From: Bdellovibrionales bacterium RIFOXYD12_FULL_39_22
GTDB lineage: Bacteria; Bdellovibrionota; Bacteriovoracia; Bacteriovoracales; Bacteriovoracaceae
Reading direction: 5' to 3'
NCBI GenBank assembly: GCA_001770205.1
Contig: MEQL01000009.1
Span: forward strand, 1 to 56,773
DNA: 56,773 nucleotides
Shown here piece by piece: positions 1 through 43,547 of this stretch. Numbering within the stretch: position 1 is the first letter of the stretch; every line of letters begins with the position of its first letter. Below the pieces are notes generated by a model. It did no database searches. It saw nothing but the letters and a program-made list of their open reading frames with translations, and was not told the DNA's origin. A program made the translations under genes and the position numbers.

Positions 1-96
1 CAAGAAAAAGTTAAAATAAATTGGAAGTTTTCGCGAAGGAAGGCTCGGGTAAAGTTCAAGTACAAAACCGGCAAAAATTAAATTGTCGCAGTACTA
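1..96 (+). mobile_element. Probable right end of an IS630-family insertion sequence (transposase C-terminus 1..81, ending at TA within CTAG)
   Basis: Frame 1 reads QEKVKINWKFSRRKARVKFKYKTGKN* (stop 79-81), resembling the I-N-W-x-F...A-R-x-K C-terminus of IS630 transposases as I recall it. It is followed by TTGTCGCAGTAC-TA-G; IS630 elements target TA. Confidence 0.55.
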
Positions 97-1205
97 GGTA
101 TATTAATGGAAGAGAATATTCAAAAACATTTTCTTCCTTGAGGGAGGCAATTACTTGGAAAAATGTTTTCCATCCCTCAATTCCTGAGAAAGTTATTGAG
201 ACCGCCCCTGTACCTAACCCAGTTCAACAAATTAGGACTCGGCAAAATGGTGAAGATTTAGGATACCGTTTTAGTGACATTTGGGATTTGTATAAAAAAT
301 TATATATTACGTCCTTAGAGAAATCTACGGCAGTAGGCCGTTTGTCTAAAGAAGGTTTTTTGTCTCCACTGTTTAATTTTAAAATGGTGGAGATTACGGC
401 GGACTTGCTTGATAAATTTATTGCAAGACACAAGGCGGATGTCTCAGTAATGAAAAGTGGTCGTAGATATAATTTCAATGATGAGCTAAAATGTTTAAAG
501 GCCATGTTGAATTGGTATCGAGAAAACTATGATCCCTTTTTTATAAATCCAGTATTAAAACGACACAAGACGGCAGGAGTAATTCGAAAAATAGAAAAGC
601 GTGACAAAAAAATGTCGGCCGAAGAAGTATTAAAGTTTTTCGAACAACTTCCTCCATTTTGGAGGGACTTTGCAGAAACTCAATTTTATATGGCCGGTAG
701 AGTTGGAGAAGTTGCAGGATTGCAGGTATCGAGTATTGATTTTCAACAGCGGGTTCTAACTGTAAAATACGTTATCGCATGGGCCAGAACATCTAAGCAT
801 TTTGATTATCTGAAGGATATGCCAAAGAATGGAGAAGAAAGATTTGTATTTTTAAATGAGAAACTTTTCGAAATTCTAACAAGAAGAGTAGCACACGCAA
901 GCGGTGGCTATGTCTTTCACGATAATGGATCTCCATTATCCTATAGGCAGATTCAATATCAGTATAATCATGCATTAAAAAAGGCCGGACTATTTCCCAA
1001 ATTTAGTTCAACCCATATTATGCGGCATTCAATGGGAACCATTACTAGAATGGTAACTGGTAGCATGGATTCAGCACAGGCGGTGACTGGCCACAAGGAC
1101 ATTAAAATGGCACAGCACTATTCATCAATGCCAACTGATATGAATAAGAATGCGGTAAACGATGTTAATCAATTTATGAGAAATCTAGAATTATCTGCAA
1201 AATAA
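21..1205 (+). CDS. Tyrosine recombinase/phage-type integrase; native N-terminus probably displaced by the IS (native sequence from about 95)
   Basis: Catalytic set is intact: R (AGRVGE), K (PKNG), HxxR (HIMRH), H (TGHKD), Y (QHYS). N-terminal arm-binding-like segment RYINGREYSKTF. Converges on the tRNA-Glu 3' end. Confidence 0.9.
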   Translation: MEVFAKEGSGKVQVQNRQKLNCRSTRYINGREYSKTFSSLREAITWKNVFHPSIPEKVIETAPVPNPVQQIRTRQNGEDLGYRFSDIWDLYKKLYITSLEKSTAVGRLSKEGFLSPLFNFKMVEITADLLDKFIARHKADVSVMKSGRRYNFNDELKCLKAMLNWYRENYDPFFINPVLKRHKTAGVIRKIEKRDKKMSAEEVLKFFEQLPPFWRDFAETQFYMAGRVGEVAGLQVSSIDFQQRVLTVKYVIAWARTSKHFDYLKDMPKNGEERFVFLNEKLFEILTRRVAHASGGYVFHDNGSPLSYRQIQYQYNHALKKAGLFPKFSSTHIMRHSMGTITRMVTGSMDSAQAVTGHKDIKMAQHYSSMPTDMNKNAVNDVNQFMRNLELSAK

Positions 1206-36955: not shown

Positions 36956-37789
36956 TTATCCAATTAACTTAAGGGCCGCTGACCCTTGAGAGTTAGCTTG
37001 CGCTAATACCGAGGTACCAGCTTGTGTCATAATGTTCAAACGAGTATTTTGTGCTGTCTCCGCAGCATAGTCAGTATCTCTGATTCGAGAATTTGCAGCA
37101 TTCAAGTTTTCAGAAGACACTTGCAAGTTTTGAATGGTGGATGATAGTCGGTTCTGCACCGCACCTAATTCAGCTCGCTGGCCAGAGATTTTTTGAATTG
37201 CATCATCTAGTACTGCTAAGCTTCCTTGCGATTCTTCTTTGCTTGAAACACTTAAGCTTGCAACTCCCAATCCTTCCATGGTGGAGTTTGTGATTCCAGC
37301 GTTATAACGGATTCTATCTTGGAAAGAATCGTTATTAATGCCGATTTGGAAATCATAAGATTCTCCAGTTCCGTTCAGCAACTTCTTGCCGTTGAATTCG
37401 GTAACTTGAGAAATCCTTTCAATCTCTTGCTTCAAATTTTGATACTCTAAATTGGTAAATTGTCTCTCAGCATCTCCCACTGTGTCAGAGGCAGATTGGA
37501 TGGACAATTCGCGTAATCTGATCAAGATGTTCGAAATTTCATTCATACCACCTTCTGCGGTCTGAATTAACGAAATACCATCGTTAGCATTTCGGCCAGC
37601 TTGAGTTACGCCTCGGATTTGTGCTTTCAATTTTTCACTGATTGCCAATCCGGCGGCATCATCGGCAGCGCGTACGATTCTGGTACCAGAAGATAGCTTC
37701 GATAGCGTTCTCTCCTGATCTGCGCTGTTGACGCCTAATGTTCGTTGTGCGGACAAAGACGTGACGTTGGTGTTAATACGTAAACCCAT
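36956..37789 (-). CDS. fliC: Flagellin (short, 277 aa)
   Basis: RINTN, LSSG.RI.RAADDAAGLAIS, NANDGISLIQTAEG, SRIRDTDYA. Confidence 0.97.
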   Translation of the reverse strand: MGLRINTNVTSLSAQRTLGVNSADQERTLSKLSSGTRIVRAADDAAGLAISEKLKAQIRGVTQAGRNANDGISLIQTAEGGMNEISNILIRLRELSIQSASDTVGDAERQFTNLEYQNLKQEIERISQVTEFNGKKLLNGTGESYDFQIGINNDSFQDRIRYNAGITNSTMEGLGVASLSVSSKEESQGSLAVLDDAIQKISGQRAELGAVQNRLSSTIQNLQVSSENLNAANSRIRDTDYAAETAQNTRLNIMTQAGTSVLAQANSQGSAALKLIG

Positions 37790-38079: not shown

Positions 38080-41016
38080 ATGGATTATAAACGGCCACTA
38101 ATATACTTTTCTCCTCTTTCTCCTTCCGCAGAAAAACTTAAAAGTTTGACACGGGAGATATTAAGCAAAAAGGATCCAACGCAAGAAGAGATCGATGATG
38201 GTGCTGAGGTCGAAGATAAGAATTTTGAAATATATGAGGTAGTGGAAGGTGAAGAGATAAATCAACTGCTGCCAACTATTGGCCCTTCCTTGACGGTAGT
38301 ATCCTCTCCTAAAAAATGTGCAATGCTACTCAAAAGTAACAGCAAGTATATAAAGAAATTTCAATCAAAGGTTTTACTTTTGAGTGTTAGTGAGATTCCT
38401 TCTGACGTAATGAATAAACTGATGAAGCTGGGATTGACGGAGCATATGGCGGAGCCGGTGAATCCCAAAACACTTTTATTCAAAATTAAATTTTTATTGA
38501 AGTCACTAAAATCGCTACAAAAAGAAGAGGAAAAAGAGAAGACACAGGCGGTAGTGTTTAAAAAATCAGATGATGAAAAGAAAAAGGAAGAAAACACGAG
38601 CGAAGTGTTGAGAGTAGAGAAGGGGATTTTGACAGAAAAGTCTGCTAGCGAAATTAATTTAGATAGTGGAATTAAAGGAGAGAAAAAAGTTGATCTCGGA
38701 CTAGAAGAACCGGTGCCGGAGCTTTTGCAAAAATCATCACTAGATAATATGCTTCCTGCGGATAACAAACCTAGTATCAGTAAGAAAAGTAGTGATTTGC
38801 TCCCGGACAAAGCGTCGCCAATCAAAGATAAAAGCAACCTTAATCTTTTTGGTGAGGAGAACAAAGATAATTTTTTGGAAAAATACTACAAGGGTAAAAA
38901 TAGTGACGATCTTAAGCTGGATATGGAGGCAAAAGCTAAGCAAACGGAAGTGGTTGCTGACGATGATCTTTTTTTGCGCAAATCAGATGTTAATATTGTA
39001 GCGGCCCAAAAAGAGTTGGATGAACTTAACGCCCAAGAGCTTGAAAGAGTTGCAGATGACGAGCTAGATCTGGGCCTTGTTGCTGCATCAAAAAAGAGAG
39101 GTGGTGGCGAAAATTTGGATTTGGATTTGGCCGCTGGAAAAAAAAGCAAACAAGATAAAATGGAAGAGTTAGATCTTTTGTCAAAAGCTGCCCACCCCGA
39201 ATCGTTAAAGGGAGAGACGGATGAATCTTTGGGCCTAAAAAAAATAGCAGAAGTTAATTTATTGGGGGATGATTTTTCTGAAGATGATGCTATTCGCAAT
39301 GCTAAGCAAGAGCTACTAAATTTAGACCTTACACCCGGGAAAAAACATTCCGCTGATAGGCCGACAGACTTAGATGATTTGGTAGAGAGTTCGGTTGAGA
39401 AAAAACAAAATGAGGCCGTTATTGAAATTGATCTATCACGTGCAAAAAAACTTAAGCAAGAACTAAGTGATGACGAAGAAAAAGCACGCTTAAAATTAAA
39501 AGAGCAAGAAGTTGAACTGTCGCTAGATCCGACCGGCCCCAAACCTAGTGCCGAAATAAGCGAGCTTGATCTTGGCCTTAAGAAGGCAGGCCTGTTAGAT
39601 TTAGTGGATGCCCAGGAGTCTCAAGAAGATGATTTGCAAAAGAGGGCAAAGGCCGGTGAGATGATAATAGATCTGCAGGCAGCCAGAGAGAGAAAGGATG
39701 CCCAAGAAGTACTTGATATTGATGACGGCGTTATGGCCGCAGATAAAATAGAAATAAATACGGAAGGATTGCGACAGGATAAGAATAATCTAAAACTAGA
39801 TTTAAATTCTGACTTAGAAATAGAGTCTGGCAGTAAGAAAAATAAAGAGCAATCACTAGAATTGGATTTGTTTGGGGATAAAAAGCTGGCGCGAAAAAAC
39901 AAAAAAGATGAAGATGTAGAAATTACCTCGGAGATGGCAGGTGCCGTCAAACATGAGATTAGTTCTCGCGAGGATGAGTTATTGCGGGCCAAAAAAGTAA
40001 AAGATATTGAACTAGATTTGGACAGTAGTGGGAAAATAAAAAATCACGGAGTTGAACACATCTCCACATATTATGGATTAAAAAAGAAAGAGGGATTAGA
40101 GAAAGGTGCTGATTGGGATATTTTAAAAGAAGATAATGTGTTGAATGTTGAAAAGAGGAAGAGAAAAAAAGGTGGTGGATGGGAAGGCGAAGAGTCTGAC
40201 TCTTCAGCGATGGCCGGACAGGCCATTGATTATAGAAAAATGAAACAGGAATTTGCTTTAGTTGGCCAGATTTTGGCCAAAGGTAAGGCCGATGTTGGCA
40301 CTAATAAGTGGACTTCTGTTTCGCTAGAAGATCCAGAGGTGCAAGAGATGGTGGCCAAGCTTAATGCTCTTCAAGATGATCCGGCCAAAATGATAAAAGA
40401 GTTGGAGTTAGAGGAGGAAGATGAGGCACCGGTAATTGAACCAAAGTCAGAAGGATTAGAATTTATCATTAAAACTTATCTTCAATATACTCAGCCTAAA
40501 TTAGATGTGAAAAATATTTTCAAAGATATTGCGAGGATTATTTGGAAAGAGCATGAGGGAGTGACTACTTTTTTGGTTAATGAGTTTACCAAAGATAAAT
40601 ATTTTGAAGAGTATGTTGGGTATTTAGAGTTAGATGTTCCTATGGATCAAGAAGAATGTCTGGAGACTTGGAATAAATTAAAAGAAGTCCGGACAAATTT
40701 ATGGAGAATAACTAAATTGCCAACATGGTCAGATGATACATTTCAGTCACCCTCCAACGAGTTTGTCTATCCTTATTTTGAAGGTGATGGAAATATGGGA
40801 GTGGCCATTGTTGGTTTTAATAAACCATTTGAGCAAAAGTATGCCAAAACAATTGAGATTATTTTAGAGAGTGCCCGCGGAATTTTTTTAAATAAATTTC
40901 ACGAGCAAGGAGGGGCGGGGGCATATTTGGGAATGATTAGAAAAGATTATGCTCAAGATGAAAATGGAGAGGGCGAAAAGCTTTGGAATAAACTTTTTGG
41001 GAAAAAGGCCAGTTAG
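38080..41016 (+). CDS. 978-aa protein: pseudo-receiver N-terminus, long charged low-complexity region, GAF-like C-terminus
   Basis: VLLLS...LMKLGLTEHMAEPVNPKTLL REC pattern; repeated (E/D)L(D/E)L motifs; C-terminal FVYPYFEGDGNMGVAIV. Confidence 0.7.
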   Translation: MDYKRPLIYFSPLSPSAEKLKSLTREILSKKDPTQEEIDDGAEVEDKNFEIYEVVEGEEINQLLPTIGPSLTVVSSPKKCAMLLKSNSKYIKKFQSKVLLLSVSEIPSDVMNKLMKLGLTEHMAEPVNPKTLLFKIKFLLKSLKSLQKEEEKEKTQAVVFKKSDDEKKKEENTSEVLRVEKGILTEKSASEINLDSGIKGEKKVDLGLEEPVPELLQKSSLDNMLPADNKPSISKKSSDLLPDKASPIKDKSNLNLFGEENKDNFLEKYYKGKNSDDLKLDMEAKAKQTEVVADDDLFLRKSDVNIVAAQKELDELNAQELERVADDELDLGLVAASKKRGGGENLDLDLAAGKKSKQDKMEELDLLSKAAHPESLKGETDESLGLKKIAEVNLLGDDFSEDDAIRNAKQELLNLDLTPGKKHSADRPTDLDDLVESSVEKKQNEAVIEIDLSRAKKLKQELSDDEEKARLKLKEQEVELSLDPTGPKPSAEISELDLGLKKAGLLDLVDAQESQEDDLQKRAKAGEMIIDLQAARERKDAQEVLDIDDGVMAADKIEINTEGLRQDKNNLKLDLNSDLEIESGSKKNKEQSLELDLFGDKKLARKNKKDEDVEITSEMAGAVKHEISSREDELLRAKKVKDIELDLDSSGKIKNHGVEHISTYYGLKKKEGLEKGADWDILKEDNVLNVEKRKRKKGGGWEGEESDSSAMAGQAIDYRKMKQEFALVGQILAKGKADVGTNKWTSVSLEDPEVQEMVAKLNALQDDPAKMIKELELEEEDEAPVIEPKSEGLEFIIKTYLQYTQPKLDVKNIFKDIARIIWKEHEGVTTFLVNEFTKDKYFEEYVGYLELDVPMDQEECLETWNKLKEVRTNLWRITKLPTWSDDTFQSPSNEFVYPYFEGDGNMGVAIVGFNKPFEQKYAKTIEIILESARGIFLNKFHEQGGAGAYLGMIRKDYAQDENGEGEKLWNKLFGKKAS

Positions 41017-41036: not shown

Positions 41037-42071
41037 ATGAAAAAAAAGGACTATTTTGAAATAAGTTTAGAGATGTTGAAGGAGAAAAAGATTTTTCCTT
41101 TTCATCTGCATGTGTTCAATCCGCTTAATAAGCAATACTCTTCATATTTGCTGGCCAACAATCCGCTGACACAAAAAAAACGTGAGTTTTTGGAGTATAT
41201 AATAAAAAACGGTGGAAAATTAGCAGTGGCCTTTGGACAAAAATCTACTTTTTTAGAGGAGACGGAGACAAAGGAAGAAGAGGTTCCATCTTTGAAAGAT
41301 GCAGAACCTCATCCGCTAGAGAAGGCCCGCAAAATGTATCAGAAAATTTTAGAGGATAAAGATAAAATTAATGGGCCGTTTATTTTTCAAGAGGAGATGA
41401 ATAAGGCCGTCGAGGCAGAGAATTTTGCAATTATTATTGAAAGAACACATGATGAAATAATGACGTTGCCAGTTAATTTGTCTTCCACTGTTAGCTTGGC
41501 AGTACATCTTACAGATTTGTTAATGACTGAAGATAATTACATAAATCGAGTGGTGGCGGTGGCCTATCAATTGGCCAAAGTTAGCGATATGCGGGATGAA
41601 GAAATTTTAGGCGATTTAGTGTGCGCGGCATTTTTACACCATGTTGGAATTTCACAACTGGATATCGCAGTATCGCGGAAGGCCTTTTATGCAATTCCCG
41701 ATGAATTTAGAAAGGAATATAAAAAACATCAAGGCCTTGCTCATCATTTGATAAAAAAGAGTGGAGTTGAACTAAGCAAACGCTGTATAGATACCATTCT
41801 TGAGCATCACGAACGAAATGACGGCTCAGGATATCCGTTTCAAAAAATGGGTAATAAGATTACGCCGCTGGCCCTATTGTTAGGAGCTGTTTCTCATATT
41901 TTTGAATATGCTACTGGTAAAATCGATGGCAATACCAGATCGATCAAGTCTGTTTTGAGTAGTCTTAAAAATAAAACTTTTACCCCTGGACTTGAATTTG
42001 AGTTTGGCGATACAATATATAATAATTTAATATACTTAATGGAAAAAGAAATAACTAGTAATGCAGCATGA
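41037..42071 (+). CDS. Degenerate HD-GYP domain protein
   Basis: HHERNDGSGYP is intact, but the HD motif reads LHHVG. Confidence 0.85.
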   Translation: MKKKDYFEISLEMLKEKKIFPFHLHVFNPLNKQYSSYLLANNPLTQKKREFLEYIIKNGGKLAVAFGQKSTFLEETETKEEEVPSLKDAEPHPLEKARKMYQKILEDKDKINGPFIFQEEMNKAVEAENFAIIIERTHDEIMTLPVNLSSTVSLAVHLTDLLMTEDNYINRVVAVAYQLAKVSDMRDEEILGDLVCAAFLHHVGISQLDIAVSRKAFYAIPDEFRKEYKKHQGLAHHLIKKSGVELSKRCIDTILEHHERNDGSGYPFQKMGNKITPLALLLGAVSHIFEYATGKIDGNTRSIKSVLSSLKNKTFTPGLEFEFGDTIYNNLIYLMEKEITSNAA

Positions 42072-42091: not shown

Positions 42092-42490
42092 ATGACGTTG
42101 AAGGCCGATATGAGAATTTTAGTGGTCGATGATATGGCGACAATGCGTAAAATTATAAAAAATATGTTAACGCAAATTGGCTTCACTAATATACAAGAGG
42201 CAGATGATGGATCAACTGCCTGGAAAAAAATGGAAGATGCCATTGCATCAGGGGCCCCGTACGAATTTATTGTTTCTGATTGGAACATGCCGCAGCTGAG
42301 TGGCCTTGATTTTTTGAAAAAAATTCGCTCAGTAGAAAGCTTAAAAAATCTTCCATTTTTGATGATTACTGCCGAAGCAGAACAAGGGAATGTCGTTATA
42401 GCGGTAAAGGCCGGAGTAAGTAATTTCATCGTTAAACCGTTTTCAGCACAAGTGTTGAAAGAAAAAATTGACAAAATATTTAATAAGTAA
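42092..42490 (+). CDS. cheY: Chemotaxis response regulator CheY
   Basis: VVDDMATMRK, SDWNMP, MITAEA, IVKPF. Confidence 0.93.
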   Translation: MTLKADMRILVVDDMATMRKIIKNMLTQIGFTNIQEADDGSTAWKKMEDAIASGAPYEFIVSDWNMPQLSGLDFLKKIRSVESLKNLPFLMITAEAEQGNVVIAVKAGVSNFIVKPFSAQVLKEKIDKIFNK

Positions 42491-42514
42491 TCTTTGCCTC
42501 CTGAGGATTTTACA

Positions 42515-43027
42515 ATGACAATGCAAGATGATCCTGCAATGAAAGAGATCATAGATGATTTTTGCAAGGAGACTAATTCACTTTTTGTTCCTCTTCAAAA
42601 GACATTAGAAAATTTGGAGGCAGCTCCGACTAATACCAAAGAATTAGAAAGGTTTGGCCAGATGATTGATCGTATCATGGGAGCGGCAAAATCTATTGGA
42701 GCAACCGAGATTGCCACTTTTTGTGAATTAGGAAAGACCATCGGGTATAAAGCATCGCAGACAAAAGATGTTCCACTACTAAATGTGGTAGTGGCCATTT
42801 TATTTGATACGATTGATCTTTTATCGAAAATGATCGCTAAGTTGCAAACAGGAAATGCAACTCCACTTCGTGGACTTAATACTGATGCGTTTGTAACTAG
42901 ATTGCGATGGTTGTCAGATAAATTTAAAAATATTGATAGAGCTTCTTGTATTGTGGAAGATCCAGATAGCAAGAAGAATCTTTCACAGGCCTCTATTGAT
43001 GAGTTAATGAATAGCTTAGGCCTATAA
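42515..43027 (+). CDS. HPt-like protein lacking the phospho-His, with CheZ-like motifs
   Basis: CheA-P1-like helices; ERFGQMIDRIMG; C-terminal SQASIDELMNSLGL; GAGGA RBS before ATG 42515. Confidence 0.75.
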   Translation: MTMQDDPAMKEIIDDFCKETNSLFVPLQKTLENLEAAPTNTKELERFGQMIDRIMGAAKSIGATEIATFCELGKTIGYKASQTKDVPLLNVVVAILFDTIDLLSKMIAKLQTGNATPLRGLNTDAFVTRLRWLSDKFKNIDRASCIVEDPDSKKNLSQASIDELMNSLGL

Positions 43028-43043
43028 TAATTTGGGGATACTC

Positions 43044-43547
43044 ATGAGTAATAATTTTATCGAGTTTTCTAAGCCTTTTATCGATGCGGCGAAAAATGTC
43101 TTCGAGACTATGGTTTTTACAAAGCTAGAACCTCAAAAACCTTTTATAAAAAAAGATAATGTTTCTCGCGGAGATGTTTCTGCTGTTTTAGGTATGAGTG
43201 GGGTTTTAAAAACTGGCGATAAGGGCCCGGTGGAATTTAAGGCCATGTTTGTTTTATCTTGGCCGTATGAGACATATTTCAAAGTGGCCAGTGCAATGCT
43301 TATGGCAACCTACACTACTTACTGCGAAGAGATATCTGATGCTGGCGGTGAGATATGCAACATGGTAACAGGAAATGCTAAGCGCGACTTAGCGGTTATG
43401 GGTTATAGTTCTAATATGTCTATTCCCTCAATGATTGAGGGGGCCGGGCATACCATCAAATATCCACCAGGGACAAAGATCATTGTTATCCCAATTACTT
43501 CTGCGCATGGCCCAATGTTTATGGAACTTTGCTACAAAGAGGAGTAG
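43044..43547 (+). CDS. cheX: Chemotaxis phosphatase CheX
   Basis: PFIDAAKNVFETM, DVSAVLGMSG, catalytic ExxN (GEICNM), SIPSMIEG. Confidence 0.9.
   Translation: MSNNFIEFSKPFIDAAKNVFETMVFTKLEPQKPFIKKDNVSRGDVSAVLGMSGVLKTGDKGPVEFKAMFVLSWPYETYFKVASAMLMATYTTYCEEISDAGGEICNMVTGNAKRDLAVMGYSSNMSIPSMIEGAGHTIKYPPGTKIIVIPITSAHGPMFMELCYKEE

Follow-up and report, generated by a model that had tools for sequence, protein, structure and literature searches.

A histidine-less CheA P1-type domain encoded beside cheY in Bdellovibrionota, a possible phosphatase of phosphorylated CheY

What can a phosphotransfer domain do once the histidine that carries its phosphoryl group is gone? This question is raised by a small gene in contig MEQL01000009.1 (assembly GCA_001770205.1) of Bdellovibrionales bacterium RIFOXYD12_FULL_39_22, the whole 56,773-nucleotide stretch of which is referred to here as the window. 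A preliminary description, made from the sequence alone, had read the product of its open reading frame (ORF) 42494..43027 (plus strand) as a histidine phosphotransfer (HPt)-like protein with Asp in place of the acceptor His, carrying a CheZ-type catalytic motif and a CheZ-like C-terminal tail. Two explanations had been offered, namely an HPt scaffold repurposed as a CheZ-like phosphatase of phosphorylated CheY (CheY-P), or a very divergent CheZ. We find that the protein is almost certainly a stand-alone, His-less domain derived from the P1 domain of the kinase CheA, folded as a five-helix HPt bundle. The former explanation therefore supplies the right frame, that of a CheA-P1-type scaffold without His joined to a CheZ-like C-terminal peptide. 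Tentatively, we read it as a P1-derived CheY-P binder whose Asp would position a water molecule, making it a CheZ-like phosphatase by convergence. Residue numbers are counted from 42494 throughout; true numbers are 7 lower (E52/Q56/D59/K81 correspond to E45/Q49/D52/K74).

Sequence comparisons bear out the earlier view that the N-terminal half follows the CheA P1/HPt pattern. The Pfam Hpt model (PF01627) matches the window protein at E 0.0046 with 17.6 bits, under its cut-off of 24.6; a phmmer search against PDB retrieved the P1 domain of Thermotoga maritima CheA (2ld6) at E 3.5e-4; and hhalign aligned the family profile with Escherichia coli CheA P1 at E 2.2e-4 over 52 columns covering helices A and B. 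Across the family, 20 of 56 members match Pfam Hpt at E<=10, the best of 55 scanned singly reaching 23.2 bits, and one homologue (locus L127) scores 25.2 bits. The CheX and CheC models gave no match to the protein in the Pfam scan, and the same kind of scan revealed no extra domain in 11 longer family members.

The predicted structure agrees with this assignment. An AlphaFold2 model computed with 56 diverse relatives as input (predicted local distance difference test score, pLDDT, 89.1; predicted template modelling score 0.84) comprises five helices followed by a short C-terminal helix. CheA P1 entries account for eight of the ten top Foldseek matches in PDB, the CheA3P1-CheY6 complex among them; the entries 2ld6, 3kyj/3kyi, 1i5n and 1tqg stand at the top of that list. 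A VIA-align search of 48,161 chains placed the CheA P1 structure 1tqg first (Z 16.4, root-mean-square deviation 1.7 over 104 of 105 residues), with 1i5n (Z 14.6), 3kyj (Z 14.1) and 2ld6 (Z 13.9) ranking high among designed bundles. The protein thus shares with CheA P1 the five-helix bundle, the helix A/B pattern and a Gly at position +4 from the acceptor site. It differs in standing alone, in scoring under the Pfam cut-off, in its altered active site and in carrying a putative C-terminal docking peptide in place of the P2 domain.

The active site has been exchanged residue by residue. In phmmer, hhalign and multiple alignments, His48 of CheA corresponds to D59, and in the alignments with E. 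coli CheA, Lys51, Gly52 and Glu70 correspond to M62, G63 and K81, respectively, as had been proposed for the His and for its Lys and Glu partners. In these alignments, the His/Glu pair of CheA P1 is replaced by an Asp/Lys pair. The window protein contains no histidine anywhere in its sequence (count 0) and therefore cannot act as a His phosphocarrier, so that the ordinary HPt phosphotransfer reading was rejected.

Conservation was counted in 150 listed family representatives and in 56 hand-picked full-length members. Asp occupies position 59 in 139 of the representatives and in 55 of the full-length members. The Gly four residues past the acceptor position (G63) is kept in 137 representatives, R60 and M62 are each R and M in 133, and K81 is K in 133, with 11 gaps, as well as in 55 of the 56 full-length members. 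The E-x3-Q pair, previously taken for the CheZ-type catalytic motif, is frequent in the family without being obligatory: all motif residues are invariant in the 120 closest sequences, but in the wider sample position 52 is E in 104 and D in 7 of the 150 (E in 39 of the 56), and position 56 is Q in 107 and N in 18 (Q or N in 46 of the 56). Because the Asp is so widely kept and E52 and Q56 are less conserved, the hallmark of the family is D59/R60/G63/K81 rather than E-x3-Q. Judged from these alignments, the four hallmark residues are conserved more strictly than a role as mere scaffold would demand.

Beyond the bundle, the protein continues through a low-confidence linker into a C-terminal peptide that resembles known CheY-P docking elements. 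The linker varies in length across the family, reaching about 60 residues in the member P0129, in whose model it has pLDDT 52-63. BLASTP aligned the tail with that of E. coli CheZ at 7 of 14 identical positions (E 0.024), and hhalign comparisons with two CheZ alignments, one shallow and one broader, matched the last 16 columns only, at E 6.7e-4 and 3.5e-4; the noted similarity to the CheY-P-binding tail of CheZ is thus borne out. The pattern L-S-Q-x-x-[VI]-D-x-L-[LM]-N-x-[LV] is also found at the N-terminus of the genome's own FliM, this being one of only four occurrences in 14,581 ORF segments of the genome. The sole match between the family profile and this FliM in hhalign joins the tail to FliM residues 4-17. 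The FliM N-terminus is the classical CheY-P docking peptide; the match is short and weak (E 0.01), and the motif is N-terminal in FliM but C-terminal here. We consider it probable that the protein binds CheY or CheY-P.

The likeness to CheZ proper was examined with profiles of both families. The E. coli CheZ strings quoted in the preliminary description are correct against the E. coli CheZ sequence; the suggested alignment of helix B with the CheZ catalytic helix, by contrast, rests on a G-Q-x-I-x-R-x-M resemblance that is not significant (BLASTP E 0.30), and hhalign aligns the tail alone. The first CheZ alignment was shallow, its E. coli CheZ relatives all sharing at least 71% identity, but a broader gamma- and betaproteobacterial alignment built from genome loci gave the same outcome. 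Pfam CheZ (PF04344) has no match to the window protein at E<=1; within the family, it yields weak matches in 5 of 56 members at E<=10, compared with 20 of 56 for Hpt. No protein scores above the Pfam CheZ cut-off in any of the 201 sampled Bdellovibrionota genomes or in the source genome, where the best match (E 0.166) lies at another locus. CheZ is also absent among the best 50 matches of Foldseek against PDB and of VIA-align, an absence that by itself carries no weight.

A true but very divergent CheZ homologue would explain why the tail aligns with CheZ tails, why helix B recalls the CheZ catalytic helix and why a few members match Pfam CheZ, the best at E 0.0088. Nevertheless, we regard it as exceedingly unlikely, given that the profile-profile comparison is restricted to the last 16 columns, that the helix match lacks significance, that sequence and predicted fold both point to CheA P1, and that Pfam CheZ remains under its cut-off throughout the sampled genomes of the phylum. 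Outside the tail, no homology to CheZ is detectable, and we conclude that the protein is not a CheZ homologue; what the two have in common is an overall layout in which a helical body is followed by a flexible linker of variable length and a conserved C-terminal peptide that ends in L-G-[FL]. They further share acid and amide side chains on one helix face, and the gene follows cheY in the window. In contrast to the long helical-hairpin dimer of CheZ (E. coli b1881), the predicted fold is a P1-type bundle, seen as a monomer model, and conservation is highest at the Asp that replaces the HPt His rather than at a D-x3-Q pair.

To place the protein in its genomic setting, homologues and their loci were collected. 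Searches at E<=1e-3 returned 347 homologues in a 90%-clustered database and 462 representatives in a 50%-clustered library. All named homologues come from Bacteriovorax or Halobacteriovorax and are labelled as Hpt-domain proteins, hypothetical proteins or 'CheA'. The family is present in 52 of the 201 sampled Bdellovibrionota genomes, a protein-cluster search returned Bdellovibrionota clusters only, and on these sequence collections the family appears, so far, to be confined to Bdellovibrionota. A close CheY match occurs in 50 of the 52 genomes with the family, as compared with 109 of the 201 overall. Of the 16 genomes of group f8 that carry the family, 13 have their best orthologue of the window CheY at most about 9 kb from the homologue; in the listed genomes of groups f3 and f23, the distance is at most 4 kb. 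Several same-family genomes additionally encode a second, tail-less paralogue of about 150 residues that covers profile positions 2-140 at about E 1e-12 (for example G095:C1:761561-761947, G146:C1:93051-93440 and G088:C1:1302010-1302339).

Gene context was counted in the 30 best loci from the 201 genomes. A gene for a Bd1817-type HD-GYP protein lies within 1.5 kb of the homologue in 28 of these loci, drawn from several families. Seventeen of the 28 are head-to-head (divergent) pairs, Bdellovibrio-type loci among them, and the other 11, the window included, have the order HD-GYP-cheY-target-cheX. The canonical order of cheY followed by the gene of interest, which had been emphasized at the outset, thus stands for 11 of 30 loci, the window among them, but the HD-GYP gene, which the preliminary description had not considered, is the steadier neighbour. 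In the Bdellovibrio-type locus L003, the adjacent gene encodes Bd1817 or an almost identical orthologue (match to PDB 3tm8 at E 1.3e-182). Elsewhere, the components are shuffled: cheX-cheY-target in L147; the target gene head to head with HD-GYP-cheY-cheX in L148; the target gene following cheA, with an HD-GYP gene next to it, in L127; and target, HD-GYP, cheX and cheY adjoining a full che cluster in L128. In one Bdellovibrio-type genome, the Bd1817/target pair is separated by about 6 kb from a cheY-cheX-HD_5 operon (L146:12208-14577; HD_5 protein of 459 residues), so that two different HD-GYP-type proteins are encoded near the chemotaxis genes. A cheX gene is present in every module inspected. 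The protein is therefore part of a conserved module together with CheY, CheX and an HD-GYP phosphodiesterase of the Bd1817 type. This module probably links a chemosensory signal to the turnover of cyclic di-GMP (c-di-GMP).

The same association occurs within single polypeptides. The second match of the family profile in the source genome is P0393, a protein of 590 residues encoded outside the window (contig C35:23837-25606; L046:7838-9610). Its N-terminus is the same P1-like domain and retains Asp, the +4 Gly and Lys at the corresponding positions; its C-terminus is HD-GYP. Residues 180-578 align with REC-HD-GYP proteins, and among relatives of about 450-490 residues, seven of eight scanned match Response_reg at E 1.1e-5 or better. 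A direct Pfam scan found no receiver domain in P0393, whereas its homology to the REC-HD-GYP proteins points to a receiver-like domain, which looks degenerate. The full-length fusion is found in 3 of 36 family genomes, namely the source genome and those represented by L130 and L131. Given these fusions and the gene neighbourhood, the Asp-bearing P1 domain, the receiver and HD-GYP are linked in both ways. One of the REC-HD-GYP relatives (L145:1405-2793) has a residue other than Asp at the position aligned with the putative phospho-Asp of P0393 in one pairwise alignment, and some receivers of these relatives may be pseudo-receivers.

These observations can be assembled into the phosphatase mechanism that we tentatively prefer. 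The tail, to judge from its motif, would tether the protein to the alpha4-beta5-alpha5 face of CheY-P, and the alphaA/alphaB face of the bundle would dock over the CheY active site as CheA P1 does, a geometry suggested by the fold and by the CheA3P1-CheY6 structure. In the CheA3P1-CheY6 case (PMC2817712), P1 alone is enough to bind a CheY, by way of alphaA/alphaB. Asp59 would then face the phospho-aspartate of CheY; being shorter than His, it could make room for a water molecule and orient it in line with the phosphoryl group, and Lys81, Arg60 and usually Gln/Asn56 would assist, leading to faster hydrolysis of CheY-P. PMC3035606 describes phosphatase complexes in which the attacking water sits at the site of the HPt His imidazole in Spo0B-Spo0F, full phosphatase activity retained by RapH Q47E, and an acidic residue proposed to orient water in Spo0E. 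Because water occupies the imidazole site and a carboxylate can replace an amide, the change from His to the shorter Asp would be a simple way to let water take over from His as the acceptor. The protein would then be a signal terminator that evolved on a phosphotransfer scaffold and acts within the CheY/CheX/HD-GYP module. Coexistence with CheX would have a parallel in Vibrio cholerae, in which, according to PMC12799141, two CheY-P phosphatases coexist under separate control. Acceleration of CheY-P dephosphorylation by the protein is, in our estimate, possible rather than probable.

Several observations weigh against this mechanism. The amide at position 56 is absent in 10 of 56 members, a permissive form of the tail pattern is present in only 79 of the 141 representatives that reach helix E, and the homologue P0394 follows cheY yet has no tail. 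A second phosphatase is not required, since CheX with an intact-looking active-site motif adjoins the gene and is found in every module inspected. The steadiest neighbour is the HD-GYP gene and not cheY, and this linkage, together with the fusions to REC-like-HD-GYP proteins, is no less compatible with a regulatory or adaptor function. HPt proteins can also shield a phosphorylated receiver from hydrolysis, as in the YPD1-SSK1 pair. Furthermore, the tail may not be free but packed in cis against the bundle, because its helix is modelled with high confidence in two monomer models: pLDDT is about 90 in the window protein and 78-91 in P0129, where it follows the 60-residue linker. Were this so, a closed, auto-inhibited state would have to open before CheY could bind. 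Mutual information over 235 sequences (effective number 143) gave no convincing coupling between tail and bundle, the best such pair ranking 29th; the top covariation pairs look clade-driven.

Among the other explanations, a non-catalytic adaptor is somewhat unlikely but deserves the closest consideration. Here, the protein would hold CheY-P by means of the tail and the P1 face and relay the signal to the HD-GYP phosphodiesterase of Bd1817 type, or the reverse, acting as the output partner of CheY while CheX served as the only phosphatase of the module. The proximity of an HD-GYP gene in nearly all loci, whether divergent or collinear, the recurrence of the module in shuffled orders (L127, L128, L146, L147 and L148), the placement of the Asp-bearing domain N-terminal to REC-like-HD-GYP in the fusions and the constant nearness of CheX all fit such a role. 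What it leaves unexplained is a near-invariant Asp at the exact phosphotransfer position, with a Lys partner, which exceeds the conservation usual for an adaptor surface. Nothing in the data points to an interface with the HD-GYP protein, its DUF3391 domain included, and Bdellovibrio-like genomes pair cheY-cheX with the different, 459-residue HD_5 protein. The same conservation argument counts against a pseudo-HPt competitor or protector, which we judge distinctly unlikely: by covering the active-site and FliM-binding faces of CheY without catalysis, it would either sequester CheY-P by keeping out CheA P1, CheX or FliM, or shield the phosphoryl group and lengthen its life. A P1 fold without His and a tail of the FliM-competing type are what such a protein would be expected to have, and plant pseudo-HPt competitors exist. 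Moreover, catalytically dead RapH still blocks phosphotransfer sterically, as stated in PMC3035606.

A further possibility is that Asp59 itself accepts the phosphoryl group from CheY-P, in the reverse of the reaction of CheY with acetyl phosphate, and that the acyl phosphate is lost to water as a covalent sink or passed to a receiver such as that of the REC-HD-GYP proteins. The invariant Asp exactly at the acceptor position, the conserved Gly at +4 and the Lys partner would suit this role, as would the fusion of the domain beside REC-like domains, an arrangement typical of HPt domains in phosphorelays; the chemistry is plausible in so far as receivers use acyl phosphates as donors. We nonetheless hold it highly improbable: the helix itself provides neither an Mg site nor a pocket, the receiver-like part of the fusion protein appears degenerate, and we know of no HPt domain in which a helix-borne Asp serves as phosphocarrier. 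If true, an Asp-to-Asp-to-Asp relay would wire chemotaxis to c-di-GMP.

Comparison with characterized systems helps to define what the phosphatase reading would add. To our knowledge, only a few kinds of auxiliary CheY-P phosphatase have been described, namely CheZ, CheC/CheX/FliY and a region of CheA3. All of them place an acid and/or amide side chain over the receiver active site. Plant pseudo-HPt proteins of the AHP6 type have Asn in place of the His and act by competitive inhibition. They resemble the window protein in their HPt fold, in the replaced acceptor His and in the expected ability to bind receivers while carrying no phosphate, but the window protein is bacterial and clade-specific and has an invariant Asp/Lys pair, a docking tail and a chemotaxis/HD-GYP context. 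RpfC-RpfG-type signalling likewise shows genetic coupling of an HPt-type domain with a receiver and with an HD-GYP phosphodiesterase; here, however, the phosphotransfer His is lacking and the receiver is a separate CheY. The Bd1817 family (DUF3391-HD-GYP) is connected through the head-to-head arrangement in Bdellovibrio-type genomes. Such HD-GYP partners have a DUF3391 N-terminus instead of REC, as described in bioRxiv 10.1101/2021.11.05.467447. CheA3 of Rhodobacter sphaeroides combines a P1 domain and CheY-P phosphatase activity in one chemotaxis protein, and its P1 alone binds its CheY (PMC2817712). This P1 retains the His, and the phosphatase activity resides elsewhere in a large protein, whereas in the window protein the bundle itself would be catalytic.

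This bacterial P1/HPt domain, which lacks His and carries a putative docking tail, could represent a new class of CheY-P phosphatase. The family, widespread in its phylum, would illustrate the conversion of a phosphotransferase into a hydrolase, or into a signalling decoy, through one swap in the active site, and the protein would fill the role of CheZ in a phylum where Pfam CheZ finds nothing. Additionally, the tight linkage to Bd1817-type HD-GYP genes suggests a partner for Bd1817, whose structure is solved but whose function is obscure, and hints at a direct connection of chemosensory signalling with c-di-GMP in predatory bacteria. A literature search, with subscription journals outside its range, found no paper on the family or on the genes flanking bd1817, and nothing relevant on His-less bacterial HPt proteins in chemotaxis or on CheZ in Bdellovibrio-like organisms. 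The neighbour of Bd1817 goes unmentioned in the searchable portions of the two Bd1817 papers, one of which is bioRxiv 10.1101/2021.11.05.467447.

The gene, its internal features and the adjoining genes of the module are listed in Table 1. The ORF from 42494 is real, but its start is better placed elsewhere: TTG 42494 lies 7 codons upstream of ATG 42515, and the latter is most likely the true start, since it is preceded by a GAGGA site and all 34 homologues of the first alignment (34/34) begin at the matching position. The earlier numbering is consequently 7 too high. The placement directly after cheY is confirmed, 24 bases separating the end of cheY from ATG 42515. The CheY product matches Pfam Response_reg at E 3.7e-25 and the NCBIfam CheY model NF007901 at E 8.7e-43, below that model's cut-off. 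The cheX ORF is listed from TTG 43032, and ATG 43044 is preceded by a GGGGA site. Its product contains the stretch D-A-G-G-E-I-C-N, with P 22 residues on, which we take to fit the active-site consensus of the CheX family. The HD-GYP product matches an NCBIfam c-di-GMP phosphodiesterase model at E 4.5e-13, and its translation holds H-H-E-R-N-D-G-S-G-Y-P.

Table 1 Features of the P1-like gene and its module in the window, ordered by position
Feature	Position	Strand	Evidence
HD-GYP-type phosphodiesterase gene, Bd1817-like architecture	41037..42071	+	Pfam HD_5 E 2.9e-12
cheY, single-domain response regulator with D13, D14, D63, T93, K115	42092..42490	+	Pfam, NCBIfam, alignment
GAGGA Shine-Dalgarno-like site	42503..42507	+	7 nt before ATG 42515, read from the sequence
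Gene of the 170-residue His-less P1-like protein	42515..43027	+	ORF, homologue starts, AlphaFold2 model, CheA P1 matches
Helix B core L-E-R-F-G-Q-M-I-D-R-I-M-G with E52, Q56, D59, R60, M62, G63	42644..42682	+	Translation, CheA alignment
Lys codon K81 on helix C, aligned with the CheA Glu partner of the phospho-His	42734..42736	+	Alignments
Low-confidence linker between bundle and tail	42947..42976	+	pLDDT 63 and 55 in model blocks 141-160
C-terminal peptide N-L-S-Q-A-S-I-D-E-L-M-N-S-L-G-L, putative CheY-P docking motif	42977..43024	+	Similarity to CheZ tail and FliM N-terminus
cheX, CheC/CheX-family CheY-P phosphatase	43044..43547	+	Pfam CheX E 3.4e-17; NCBIfam CheX E 3e-10

The gene that immediately precedes the HD-GYP gene in the same orientation (38080-41016, +) encodes a 978-residue protein very rich in Lys, Glu and Asp, which has no Pfam match. 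The source genome encodes five CheA-type kinases (contigs C51, C12 at two sites, C31 and C7), with no kinase near the module, and five CheX-domain proteins (cheX-carrying contigs include C2, C35, C31 and C52); its chemosensory network is therefore unusually complex. A flagellin gene is located 3 kb upstream of the module (36956-37789, -), and a phage-type integrase gene is found at the start of the window (21-1205, +).

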